This document shows, in pieces, positions 6,813 to 19,057 of a stretch of 64,000 nucleotides of DNA. Source of the stretch: a virus; IMG/VR virus record IMGVR_UViG_3300033121_002167, positions 1 through 64,000 of that record; one strand, given 5' to 3'. Made by a program: the position numbers and the translations under genes. Numbering within the stretch: the first letter of the stretch is position 1; each line of letters opens with the position of its first letter. Below the pieces are notes generated by a model. The model saw only the letters and a program-made list of their open reading frames with translations, was not told the DNA's origin and ran no database searches.

Positions 6813-7008
6813 TCTTCTAACCGGGAATTACGAAGGGAAGTACGCCCCTGTTTACGATGTTCGTAGGGGCACGTGGGGTACGGAGATAGTTGACCCTCTC
6901 CTCGTGATTGGTTGCTCGGCACGAGATCAAGAGTACGTGTATGGGCTTCTTGGAGAACGGATCGTGATAATCAAGATTGATGATTTTGTGAAGGTTGTCT
7001 CCCGATGA
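6793..7008 (+). CDS. GDL-family small protein (array member)
   Basis: 'VIGDLLTG','LLVIGCS'. Confidence 0.5.
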   Translation: MSPVIGDLLTGNYEGKYAPVYDVRRGTWGTEIVDPLLVIGCSARDQEYVYGLLGERIVIIKIDDFVKVVSR

Positions 7009-7106
7009 GCCGCTTTCCATTTATCCACGGTGATCTTCTTCTACCGATGGGAGATACTTTCACAACTATGAACATGTCAACCCACGTTGGTGTGTTGGGC
7101 ATTTAA
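7005..7106 (+). pseudogene. truncated GDL-family member (premature stop after ~33 codons)
   Basis: MSRFPFIHGDLLLPMGDTFTTMNMSTHVGVLGI* then ~125 nt with no family ORF. Confidence 0.35.
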
Positions 7107-7231
7107 TCGCAACGAACCGCTTATATACGTGAGTTCGTATGTCCCAGCTGGGAACTGTTACCACTTTGCTCTGGTTATAAATGTAGAAGGTTGTGCTGTA
7201 GAGTATTGGTTGAACGAGCTGGAACTGCTGC

Positions 7232-7405
7232 ATGAAGCGTGAACAGTTTAAGTCAGGCGATCTGGTCTATTGGATCCATGATGAAGTTCCGGGCATCAAC
7301 GTGTTCATCTGCACTGCGTCTGACACCGAGCACGTTGCTCTTATCATCCGCCCGACCGGCGATGTTCGCTGGCGTTGGGTTGATGAGCTTCTGGAGATAC
7401 AATGA
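7232..7405 (+). CDS. GDL-family small protein (57 aa, below ORF-track cutoff)
   Basis: MKREQFKSGDLVYWIHDEVPGINVFICTAS... Confidence 0.4.
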   Translation: MKREQFKSGDLVYWIHDEVPGINVFICTASDTEHVALIIRPTGDVRWRWVDELLEIQ

Positions 7406-7632
7406 CGATTCGTGCTGGTGATTTGCTGAGCGCAGTGTACACAACGTACATTGTGCTAGATCGTCACGGCACATGGAATTCAGTCCGGGCATGGGATCCA
7501 GAACGTGGGCATGTGGTCTTCATCTACCTTGCGCAGATGTTCGTTGGCAACATCAGAGCGTACCTGGTTCTGACATCGCATGGGCAAGTAGCAACGGTAG
7601 CAAGGAGCGATCTGAAGATTGATGAAACATAA
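7402..7632 (+). CDS. GDL-family small protein (array member)
   Basis: 'MTIRAGDLLSA','VVFIYLAQ'. Confidence 0.5.
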   Translation: MTIRAGDLLSAVYTTYIVLDRHGTWNSVRAWDPERGHVVFIYLAQMFVGNIRAYLVLTSHGQVATVARSDLKIDET

Positions 7633-7807
7633 TTTTGTCACAGGTGATCTTGTCACCATTTCTCTTGCATGGGACCGTGAGATCTATGTTTACTTGGCCG
7701 GTGTGATGTACGAAGTGGCAAAGGTCGCAATTCTTATGGGGTCGAACGGGAACATCAAAAGGTTCTACGAAAGCGACGTACAACCGCTTTGTAGGAGTCC
7801 ACTATGA
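7619..7807 (+). CDS. GDL-family small protein (array member)
   Basis: 'FVTGDLVTI','IYVYLAG'. Confidence 0.5.
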   Translation: MMKHNFVTGDLVTISLAWDREIYVYLAGVMYEVAKVAILMGSNGNIKRFYESDVQPLCRSPL

Positions 7808-8049
7808 AAGCTGGTGTTCTGGTCGTTCCCACGTTCAAGAGAATTTCAATGAATCCGCACGAGGCAGATCACTTCCTCAAAGTGAGGCAATCAAAGATTG
7901 CAGATGATTTCGCCGTAAACTTCTGCGTTGCTGTATACGTAAACAGCTTCAAAGTTGACGGTTTGCAGTACGTGTGGATCTTGCTACCAGACGGTCGTGT
8001 TATCTCTACGTACGCCGGCTCCGTTAAAGAGCTGCAGTGGGTTGAATGA
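7804..8049 (+). CDS. GDL-family small protein (array member)
   Basis: 'MKAGVLVVP','YVWILLPDGRVIS'. Confidence 0.5.
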   Translation: MKAGVLVVPTFKRISMNPHEADHFLKVRQSKIADDFAVNFCVAVYVNSFKVDGLQYVWILLPDGRVISTYAGSVKELQWVE

Positions 8050-8273
8050 ATATCGAACCTGGAGATCTTGTCTGCTCGAAGAGCAAGTTCATATCAACCT
8101 GCAATCCGATATCTGGTTATTACCTGGGTCAGTGCTTGGTTGACGATGAAGTGTTGCTGTGCGTCGGTGTTTTCATTATCGAGCCTACCCAGTTTCGTCG
8201 CAATCGCATACTGATCATGCGCGAAACTGGTGAGCTGGTTGTTACGTACGTCGACAACGTGTTTTTCATCTGA
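8046..8273 (+). CDS. GDL-family small protein (array member)
   Basis: 'MNIEPGDLVCS','VLLCVGV'. Confidence 0.5.
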   Translation: MNIEPGDLVCSKSKFISTCNPISGYYLGQCLVDDEVLLCVGVFIIEPTQFRRNRILIMRETGELVVTYVDNVFFI

Positions 8274-8285
8274 TGAGGTGTCGCT

Positions 8286-8447
8286 ATGAAAGTTGGTGAC
8301 TTGGTTGTCCCACGAAAAAATTATTTGCCAGAAGCGTGCATCATCATAGGGTTTGGTCAGCTCAAGTCAGGAGCGACTTGGGCTTGGGTCTTGCTGTTCA
8401 GCGGACGCGTCAACAGATACTACGTTGGTGCACTAGAGCTGCTATGA
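8286..8447 (+). CDS. GDL-family small protein (53 aa, below ORF-track cutoff)
   Basis: MKVGDLVVPRKNYLPEACIIIGFGQLKSGATWAWVLLFSGRVNRYYVGALELL*. Confidence 0.4.
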   Translation: MKVGDLVVPRKNYLPEACIIIGFGQLKSGATWAWVLLFSGRVNRYYVGALELL

Positions 8448-17168: not shown

Positions 17169-17398
17169 TGGTCTCTACCGGCGATATGATGATATTCCAG
17201 TGTGATGTTGCTCTACGATCACGTTCTTTGAAAGAACCAGATTGGGAGTACAAACGTTGCACCAAAGCCAAAGGCTCCATCTGCATCGTTGTAGGAACTC
17301 AAAGCTATGGTGACGATGGGGTAGATTGCTGCATATACGTTGCCAACAACCATCAGGTGGGATGGGTTAGATCAATCATCCTTGAACCGCTTCGATGA
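17168..17398 (+). CDS. GDL-family small protein (array member)
   Basis: 'STGDMMIF','ICIVVGT'. Confidence 0.5.
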   Translation: MVSTGDMMIFQCDVALRSRSLKEPDWEYKRCTKAKGSICIVVGTQSYGDDGVDCCIYVANNHQVGWVRSIILEPLR

Positions 17399-17646
17399 AA
17401 AACAAGCGATGGTATACGCACACAAAATGTATCGGCGATCTTGTGAAGATCGATGATGCACTTTTGTTGAGAACGCACCCCGTGAGACATCCCGACGGAA
17501 AGTACAAAAACACGCTTGGAGACGATAGCATGCTATTTTTGATCATCGGGATCATGATCTACGATGAAGGTGTAGATGTTTGCGTCACAGGTTGCCAAGG
17601 AGAAATAGGTTGGATAAATCAGCTGCTAGTGACGAAGTTCGAATGA
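17395..17646 (+). CDS. GDL-family small protein (array member)
   Basis: 'KCIGDLVKI','LFLIIGI'. Confidence 0.5.
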   Translation: MKNKRWYTHTKCIGDLVKIDDALLLRTHPVRHPDGKYKNTLGDDSMLFLIIGIMIYDEGVDVCVTGCQGEIGWINQLLVTKFE

Positions 17647-17876
17647 ACAATTTTTCTCCGGGTGACTTGGTCATCACGACAACGAGGCTAGCATTTCGTG
17701 CCATCGAAGATCGATCATCGCACTACATCACGCTACCTGGGACATTGCTACAGATCATCCAGATCATGGACATGGAAGATGTCGATCCCTATGCTCAGGG
17801 CCGCGGTGCACTATGCTTCTATGCACCCATGGGTCACACGATACTGTGCAACCTTGACTTCTTGAAGCCAGCATGA
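17643..17876 (+). CDS. GDL-family small protein (array member; internal start of ORF 17580..17876)
   Basis: 'FSPGDLVIT'. Confidence 0.45.
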   Translation: MNNFSPGDLVITTTRLAFRAIEDRSSHYITLPGTLLQIIQIMDMEDVDPYAQGRGALCFYAPMGHTILCNLDFLKPA

Positions 17877-18100
17877 TGTACCCAGGAGACGTGTTCGCGT
17901 ACCCAGTTTCACCAAGGGCTTGGTACTTGTGCATCGGCATCGAGGAGCTTGGGCACAATAACATCTGGGTCACTTGCGTGCTATTCAACAGCGACGTAAG
18001 CGCTCGTGTATACAAAGTGCAGATGAAGGCATATGACCCGCAGTGCACCAACGGAGCCAAGATCGTGCTCTCTAGCTGCCCACAGAATATTCAGCGATAA
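17873..18100 (+). CDS. GDL-family small protein (array member)
   Basis: 'MMYPGDVFAY','WYLCIGI'. Confidence 0.5.
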   Translation: MMYPGDVFAYPVSPRAWYLCIGIEELGHNNIWVTCVLFNSDVSARVYKVQMKAYDPQCTNGAKIVLSSCPQNIQR

Positions 18101-18149
18101 TGCGTTGCAGTTATCCACAGCCTAATTCAGTGAGTAAAATGAAAGCATC

Positions 18150-18377
18150 GTGACCGACACCTTTAAGAGCGGTGATCTCGTTCGCCTCGAAGCGGACGGC
18201 AAGTTCTTGAGCGTGAACGTATGGTCGATAAAAAGCAACGATCAATGCATAAAAGGTCTAGATCGAAACAGCATTGCCCTAGTGATCAATTACATCGATG
18301 GTTCTTTGCTGCTTCTGGTGAACGAATCGGTCGGCTGGATTCACGATCCGATATTTCTTGGGATACGGCACCTATGA
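18150..18377 (+). CDS. GDL-family small protein (GTG start)
   Basis: 'FKSGDLVRL','IALVINY'. Confidence 0.45.
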   Translation: MTDTFKSGDLVRLEADGKFLSVNVWSIKSNDQCIKGLDRNSIALVINYIDGSLLLLVNESVGWIHDPIFLGIRHL

Positions 18378-18601
18378 GCAGAATAAAACCAGGTGACCTC
18401 GTTCAACTTAATGAAAACAGCCCATACGCAGCGATATACCTTCGCAATGAACGCGGCATAGCTAGAAACACAGAACAATCAAGGGTCTGCAAAGCAGACG
18501 TTAGCATCGTGCTAGCTATCATCAATGGCGATCTGTTCGTGATGTGCCGCGATCGGATTGGTTGGACTTCATTTACGACGTACTTTAACGTGGTATCATG
18601 A
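18374..18601 (+). CDS. GDL-family small protein (array member; internal start of ORF 18221..18601)
   Basis: 'IKPGDLVQL','SIVLAII'. Confidence 0.45.
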   Translation: MSRIKPGDLVQLNENSPYAAIYLRNERGIARNTEQSRVCKADVSIVLAIINGDLFVMCRDRIGWTSFTTYFNVVS

Positions 18602-18828
18602 CCCTCTACAAGCCAGGATCTCTAGTGCAATCTTCGCACGAAGTTCACCTTTATTTGAGGTCTAAAACCGATGGCGACATTGATAACTCGGCTGGCTTCG
18701 TGCTTGGTGGAACGCTCATGACAGTGATATCAGTGAATGAAACTGAAGAAGGTAGCGTAGATTTGCTGGTCTACACGGGTGATTCGATTGGTTGGGTTTA
18801 CTCTCGCTACGTTAGATTCATCTCATGA
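18598..18828 (+). CDS. GDL-family small protein (array member)
   Basis: 'YKPGSLVQS','VDLLVYTGDSIGWVY'. Confidence 0.5.
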   Translation: MTLYKPGSLVQSSHEVHLYLRSKTDGDIDNSAGFVLGGTLMTVISVNETEEGSVDLLVYTGDSIGWVYSRYVRFIS

Positions 18829-19057
18829 TCGCTGGTGAGCTCGTCAAGCCGTGCAAAAACGTAATCGGCGTGTATTACATCGGAGCCAGCCGCAACGTTG
18901 ATGGCGAAATAATGTTCTACAAACATGATAAATTGGTGAAGCGTACCGACATGTACGTGTACATCACAAACATTAAGTAGGCCGGCACTGACTACAGCAT
19001 GCTTCTTCTAGGCGATCAGATGGTGTATTTGTACTGTGGGGAAGTTGATCCGATATG
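18825..19057 (+). pseudogene. GDL-family member interrupted by stop/frameshift
   Basis: N-part MIAGELVKP...VYYIG...ITNIK* (18825..18980); C-part 'MLLLGDQMVYLYCGEVDPI' only in another frame (18995..19057). Confidence 0.35.

Follow-up and report, generated by a model that had tools for sequence, protein, structure and literature searches.

Four members of a large tandem gene array in a huge phage have, very probably, been genuinely and very recently inactivated, each by a different ordinary mutational route within one phage lineage. The array lies in the 64,000-nucleotide (nt) stretch of viral DNA analysed here (positions 1 to 64,000 of IMG/VR record IMGVR_UViG_3300033121_002167, hereafter the window), where it fills 14.5 kb (5342-19808, + strand) with 65 small genes encoding proteins of 53-116 amino acids (aa). 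The member set was defined with a hidden Markov model (HMM) built from an alignment of the members and searched over all six frames of the window. By this search 61 members are intact and four are broken, and no further split or interrupted member was found in the window. A sequence-only reading had counted at least four broken members; the four are real, and the number is exactly four. Our confidence refers to the explanation as a whole, namely that the lesions are fresh, that individual members are dispensable and that related phages carry differing subsets of a larger pan-array.

The lesions were analysed against related loci, which were obtained by searching IMG/VR with the vault-protein homolog encoded downstream of the array and by looking up exact copies of members 7232, 13330, 16243 and 19055. 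More than 20 loci from at least 12 sequencing runs or assemblies were retrieved (designated by L numbers below), 84-100% identical gene by gene and falling into about 10 distinct array haplotypes. The comparison with orthologous arrays that the sequence-only reading had proposed was informative at each lesion, with intact orthologs in 4-9 haplotypes. The lesions, the changes behind them and their derived state could be read directly from this comparison.

Mutational routes of the four lesions

At lesion A, the stop after 33 codons reported by the sequence-only reading was confirmed. The stub open reading frame (ORF; 7005-7106) begins with ATG and terminates at 7104-7106; the sequence from 7087 to 7242, read one frame over, is the end of another member. 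The ortholog of member 7005 is an intact 69-aa MSRFPF... member (MSRFPFIHGDLLLPMGDTFTTTIMSTHGSQWYRR...AVSR) in L006/L007/L016, L008/L017, L018/L019 and L023/L025. In the relatives, three to six intact members (777, 969, 1324 or 1141 nt) lie between the two genes, and these are followed by an intact 56-aa member, MK[TA]GDLVCWAFNRNEPLIYV...LLHEA (its start also given as MK[TA]GDLVCWAFNRNEP...). Only the window and a contig of Logan run SRR32380191 have zero intervening bases. Because the relatives carry these members between the two joined genes, lesion A is a multi-gene deletion junction and not a point frameshift; it arose by an illegitimate deletion that took out three to six complete members and left two partial ones joined in different frames. 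No microhomology was visible at the junction, and an exact search of IMG/VR with the junction matched no contig.

Lesion B showed the out-of-frame fusion that had been claimed for it, with the N-terminal motif MNDVSINVGDLL (frame 1) abutting the C-terminal motif and stop FFWVMLPNGKVVSTLASEVKDARV-stop (frame 0). A member starting with MNDVS contributes its first 12 codons, which run out of frame into the last 24 codons of the second member downstream of it. In L008/L017, L018, L019 and L024 the two halves are separated by 491-503 nt, a stretch that encodes the MNDVS member in intact form (58 aa), another member and the N-terminal part of a third with the tail ...AAFFWVMLPNGEVVSTLASAVKDARV. Relative to L008/L017 the deletion is 491 nt long, which is not a multiple of three. 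The junction lies within CTGCTT (10091-10096), a 6-nt microhomology common to both breakpoints, and the deletion of roughly 0.5 kb was therefore microhomology-mediated. A different deletion, starting in the same MNDVS gene, was found in L001/L006/L007/L010/L016/L022, where recombination between IFLGD in the MNDVS member and IFLGV in member 12643 of the window produced an in-frame 55-aa chimera.

The mid-gene frameshift at lesion C was likewise present, with the gene starting at 16039, 1 nt from the position given before. The N-terminal half is in frame 0 and runs into a premature TAG (16126-16128); the C-terminal half lies in frame 2 and extends to 16241. Of the two ACGT units of a repeat (ACGTACGT repeat, also written TACGTACGTA), one has been lost by strand slippage; L024, the closest intact relative, reads ...GATACGTACGTAGTAG... 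where the window reads ...GGTACGTAGTAG.... L001, L017, L018, L019, L022 and L024 encode the ortholog as an intact protein of 68 aa. Since the out-of-frame C-terminal half is still identical in amino acids to L024, the lesion must be recent. The same deletion was found in L014 (run SRR12901019, 99% identical), accompanied by two nearby substitutions.

Lesion D had been described as two halves in different frames, which turned out to be wrong: both halves share one frame and are interrupted by a nonsense codon. A G>A change at 18979 turns TGG into TAG at codon 52, so that a single transition created the amber stop. Codon 52 is TGG (Trp) in nine relatives (L001, L004, L005, L016, L017, L018, L021, L022 and L024), and the Trp is kept even in L021, which is only 85% identical; TAG was found only in the window and the Logan contig from SRR32380191. 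Hence, what had been called frameshifts are all real lesions, but two of them mark multi-gene deletions and one a nonsense mutation.

Because the window comes from a metagenome assembly, was judged at that level and looks repetitive in this region, homopolymer indels or misjoins between similar paralogs had to be considered as the source of the lesions. The homopolymer error raised by the sequence-only reading did not hold for any of the four. None lies in a homopolymer, and instead of 1-nt indels in mononucleotide runs we found a 0.8-1.3-kb deletion, a 0.5-kb deletion, a 4-nt loss and a substitution. Nor are any paralogs similar in nucleotides over 100 nt or more, from which a misassembly could have arisen, and two of the lesions are deletions as large as 0.5-1.3 kb. 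An independent assembler gave the same sequence over 16 kb: Logan contig SRR32380191_63502 (16,213 nt) carries all four lesions and has two mismatches to the window, at 6496 and 6499. SRR32380191 is the only run on record with an exact copy of the GroEL gene and may be the window's own sample, so that this contig rules out an error of the assembler but, strictly, not one in the reads. Lesion C, with its two extra substitutions nearby, recurs in another run. Taken together, we consider an artefact highly improbable.

Programmed recoding would leave the four genes functional, by frameshifting at 7005, 10061 and 16039 and by amber read-through or a reassigned TAG at 18978. The array genes are tightly coupled, and stop-codon reassignment occurs in some huge phages, both of which could speak for such a reading. 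However, the same proteins are plain single-frame ORFs in the relatives at all four sites, and at lesions A and B the fused parts come from two separate genes, which would not yield a complete fold. Programmed frameshifting or read-through was rejected, as the two-frame or stop-containing layout is not conserved in the relatives. Reassignment of TAG was also rejected: TAG is an ordinary terminator in the window, where 12 of 43 long ORFs end in it, the vault-protein gene among them; the in-frame TAG stands in place of a conserved TGG; and the sole tRNA in the window is Leu-TAA. Recoding is thus extremely improbable.

Architecture and turnover of the array

The array members have in common an N-terminal M-x-x-GDLV motif, a central hhhYLG strand and an hhVLLPxG-x-h...L tail. 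At 43 of the 64 array junctions the stop and start codons overlap by 4 nt (NTGA), which suggests that the genes are translationally coupled. At lesion B the stub's stop (10151-10153) lies 3 nt before the next start at 10157, and coupling downstream may survive there; after lesions A, C and D the next member is uncoupled, at a distance of 126, 114 and 75 nt, respectively, with possible polar effects on it. Neither long non-coding stretches nor old decayed relics were found in the array.

Start codons other than ATG had been noticed and taken as a signature of birth and death. They do occur (53 ATG, 10 GTG and 2 TTG among the 65 members; an adjacent ATG is an alternative start for member 11490), but their interpretation as decay was not supported. 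In all 4-10 haplotypes carrying each ortholog the same start codon was found, member 5342 having no comparable ortholog, and nine of the non-ATG starts overlap the preceding stop as GTGA. The GTG and TTG starts are thus conserved from an ancestor and tied to the GTGA coupling overlaps. Member 12870 was examined as a frameshifted candidate and rejected, since it ends at a canonical GTGA overlap (13103-13106) conserved in all haplotypes. Two members run beyond the usual end, member 11039-11389 overlapping the next gene by 115 nt and member 5544-5843 by 61 nt. Because the 116-aa form of member 11039 is kept at 98-99% identity in L007, L008 and L010, it is an old stop loss or a truly longer protein and not a fresh lesion.

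Ortholog groups were defined by clustering all HMM hits of 11 haplotypes at an amino-acid identity of at least 70%. The resulting pan-array comprises 125 groups, 62 of them in the window; the groups are colinear in all haplotypes, with blocks present or absent, and among more than 10 related haplotypes each has a different array content. No ortholog group is duplicated within any of the 11 haplotypes, and blastn found no nucleotide-similar paralog pair within any of them. Orthologs are 84-100% identical in nucleotides, whereas the best paralog identity in the window is at most 47% in amino acids and over short stretches, so there is no concerted evolution. The nearest paralog lies within two array positions in 38% of cases versus 6% expected. 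Between members 14062 and 14561, some haplotypes have only member 14331 and others a block of about 10 members, while L021 has both, and this therefore points to differential loss from a larger ancestor. With no duplicated ortholog group and no nucleotide-similar paralogs in any haplotype, the visible turnover proceeds by deletion, inactivation, in-frame chimeras and block exchange within an old, diverged repertoire, not by new duplication. Thus the rapid birth-and-death turnover proposed before holds for loss and reshuffling, but no birth in the form of recent duplicates was seen.

Broken members are not peculiar to the window. The x11 member is frameshifted in L001/L016/L022, the 11490 ortholog is disrupted in two different ways (L016 and L019), and the 10602 ortholog is truncated by two different deletions (L016 and L017). 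In addition, the 6364 ortholog is truncated in L018/L019, the 5986 ortholog is frameshifted in L016, and the 16243 ortholog has lost its N-terminus in L001/L022. Since each haplotype has its own, different broken members, the process is general and individual copies are dispensable.

Longer members were also observed among the relatives. Proteins of 147-201 aa whose SH3-like domain is preceded by a hydrophobic N-terminal segment, which probably spans the membrane, and by a charged linker are encoded at L017 8107-9176, L019 8643-9556 and L021 142-606 and 1417-2332, in the slot of the window's members 12398/12643; the window has none. In P0012, a 146-aa protein from another sample, two adjacent members, one of them the 8046 ortholog, are fused in a two-domain ORF. 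Therefore, loss of a stop/start can yield in-frame fusions as well as breaks.

Selection on the array and possible reasons for loss

The ratio of nonsynonymous to synonymous substitution rates (dN/dS) was calculated by the Nei-Gojobori method with bootstrap 95% intervals; overlap codons were trimmed, and for each haplotype 16-46 pairs of intact orthologs were pooled. The pooled values for the array were 0.22-0.34, with all intervals inside 0.16-0.43. The core genes gave lower values (MVP 0.017, GroEL 0.043, DnaB-like 0.037, gene 23662 0.065 and gene 751-1428 0.099), and three other accessory-looking genes gave values similar to those of the array (0.28-0.44). Hence the intact members are maintained as proteins, under constraint that is about 5-15 times weaker than that on core genes but not absent. 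The relaxed purifying selection suggested by the sequence-only reading is correct in so far as constraint is weaker than in core genes, but purifying selection clearly acts on the intact members. All 16 flanking genes tested are full-length ORFs, and 14 of them have full-length uninterrupted matches in the relatives. Since four of 65 array members are broken and all 16 flanking genes are open, the lesions are concentrated in the array.

Loss of single members is probably tolerated because the members are functionally redundant or only conditionally useful. The proteins may act as diversified modules that bind host or defence proteins. Dead copies may be quickly purged by further deletion, leaving only fresh lesions and short stubs to be seen; the lack of long non-coding stretches and relics in the array suggests such early removal, as for a packaged genome of constrained size.

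Instead of being tolerated, inactivation might have been selected because members are sensed by, or costly in, particular hosts, which would make the lesions a product of an arms race and not of relaxed constraint. The same members have been hit independently in different lineages (two deletions in the MNDVS gene, and two hits each on the 10602 and 11490 orthologs), and these repeated hits hint weakly at selected loss. The member set also differs in every haplotype, and four lesions and at least two multi-gene deletions have accumulated in a lineage about 1-3% diverged from its nearest relatives. Yet the breakpoints lie at repeats, at microhomology or at random, as mutation alone would give, and the pooled dN/dS is well below 1 with no signal of positive selection. 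We therefore regard adaptive loss as unlikely. Another idea, which we put forward tentatively, is that the array is a polymorphic cassette library of SH3-like binders (e.g., inhibitors or decoys, for host defence or takeover targets) and that the lesions are the wake of selection. If so, each lineage would carry a different subset of about 60-70 out of at least 125 cassettes, and the fresh lesions and recurrent hits would reflect selection for a changing repertoire and not only tolerated decay.

Several points weigh against our preferred explanation, i.e., recent inactivation of dispensable members. The losses may be neutral or selected, and the repeated hits on the MNDVS, 10602 and 11490 orthologs (twice each) could mark mutational hot spots or selected loss. 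The idea of binding modules is drawn from the fold, and the ortholog groups depend on the 70% identity threshold. The evidence consists of assembled sequences, in which lesion C is the only one confirmed in a demonstrably different run.

Protein family, genome context and significance

By fold the members are SH3-like β-barrels, small and five- or six-stranded, which can be superposed on SH3, Tudor or KOW domains. Sequence searches placed them in no described family. Pfam gave no match for seven members, PHROG gave a single weak match for 55 members, and the PDB sequence search gave nothing usable; its matches were β-propeller 'Bagel' designs aligned on a single hairpin and were dismissed as spurious. 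An exhaustive profile search of 1.84 billion representatives returned 66 proteins, mostly the clade's own members, and its long matches were rejected as not belonging to the family (P0014 is a PQQ-like propeller and P0009 a repeat protein). Among GenBank phages, megablast with the array and tblastn with one member found no match, and the only homologs that a word-indexed search retrieved were this clade's own orthologs. The family is thus one of uncharacterised SH3-like mini-proteins found almost exclusively in these phages. A second small cluster with the GDLV motif was observed near GroEL, outside the array (28876-30155); all its genes are intact and 98-100% conserved in L001 (Table 1).

Table 1. 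Positions of the lesions, alternative starts and neighbouring features in the window.
Feature	Positions	Strand	Remark
Lesion A, pseudogene	7005-7242	+	Multi-gene deletion junction at 7086/7087
Lesion B, remnant of 110 nt	10061-10170	+	Stub ORF 10061-10153
Lesion C, frameshifted member	16039-16241	+	4-nt loss between 16123 and 16124
Lesion D, member with in-frame amber codon	18825-19058	+	TAG at 18978-18980
GTG-started member	8948-9115	+	Example with GTGA overlap
Other GTG starts	5342, 9885, 10387, 11490, 13103, 13820, 14331, 15063, 18150	+	Start/overlap table
TTG starts	6793, 16484	+	Start/overlap table
Major Vault Protein homolog	19824-22511	+	Pfam MVP_shoulder (2e-30), Vault repeats, SPFH-like
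Second GDLV cluster, gene 1	28876-29076	+	Cluster has three weak family-HMM matches, E 5e-4 to 0.04
Second GDLV cluster, gene 2	29141-29506	+	
Second GDLV cluster, gene 3	29472-29726	+	
Second GDLV cluster, gene 4	29730-29969	+	
Second GDLV cluster, gene 5	29958-30155	-	

The surroundings of the array are those of a huge phage, with genes for GroEL, a clamp-loader-like ATPase, an exonuclease and an HNH/intein protein. One relative is a contig of 313,755 bp, and the phage is an environmental one of roughly 314 kb. The vault-protein homolog follows directly downstream of the array in every haplotype, and its dN/dS of 0.017 shows that it is very strongly constrained. Homologs of this protein at 41-45% identity are found in the huge phages LR756500 and LR756501 (462 and 735 kb). 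No array was found beside the more distant vault-protein genes of L002 (64% identity) and of LR756500/LR756501. Scans for promoters and terminators gave no excess over shuffled sequence.

Three further regions of the window were noted; the Pfam labels of the NUDIX/endonuclease and DNA-repair regions were taken from L026. A GIY-YIG/NUMOD3 homing-endonuclease gene (39659-40543, +) lies on the opposite strand between two NUDIX-domain ORFs (about 39392-40985), and the arrangement looks like a NUDIX gene split by endonuclease insertion. A 660-aa ORF (41651-43633, -) matches HNH endonuclease and peptidase and probably contains an intein, its equivalent in L026 matching Intein_splicing and Peptidase_C1. 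Beside GroEL, a run of UvdE, AAA ATPase, ADP-ribosylglycohydrolase, Fapy DNA glycosylase and HhH-GPD genes was found at about 32500-38700 (-).

Tandem multigene families commonly evolve by birth and death, as in the model of Nei and Rooney, with viral examples in the multigene families of African swine fever virus and poxviruses. The present array resembles them in having tandem paralogs of common origin (all 65 match one HMM), inactivated copies, a content that differs between close relatives, and orthologs far more alike than paralogs. It differs in that no recent duplication was found in the 11 haplotypes, so the array displays only the death and reshuffling half of the process (loss and presence/absence, but not gain), and in that its dead copies do not persist as old decayed pseudogenes. 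Genomic accordions, such as the amplification of poxvirus K3L, consist of near-identical recent copies. As in these, the copy number of the array changes over short evolutionary time, but its paralogs reach at most 47% amino-acid identity and have no nucleotide similarity. Unlike the known SH3-like, Tudor and KOW small β-barrels, the array family belongs by sequence to no family in Pfam, PHROG or PDB. A literature search for a described equivalent found none, the sole comparator being the lineage-specific expansion of about 35 zinc-ribbon copies in Bacillus phage G (PMC7824862). In both cases one small domain occurs in tens of copies in a very large phage genome. However, the array encodes an SH3-like barrel in about twice as many copies, forms a single contiguous run of overlapping genes, and has its presence/absence variation and lesions documented at the population level. 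It is thus a new gene family with a known evolutionary pattern.

To our knowledge, phage genomes are compact and rarely contain pseudogenes. Here, four fresh phage pseudogenes were each traced to a specific mutational mechanism through intact orthologs in sister genomes, which shows directly how so large a paralog array is eroded and reshuffled in a huge phage. This base-level dissection and the polymorphic pan-array are the most useful results. The corrected picture is that of an old repertoire whose intact members are kept by selection and whose diversity comes from differential loss and cassette recombination. Since the family always lies directly upstream of a vault-protein homolog in these phages, it offers a concrete target for finding out what such expansions do.

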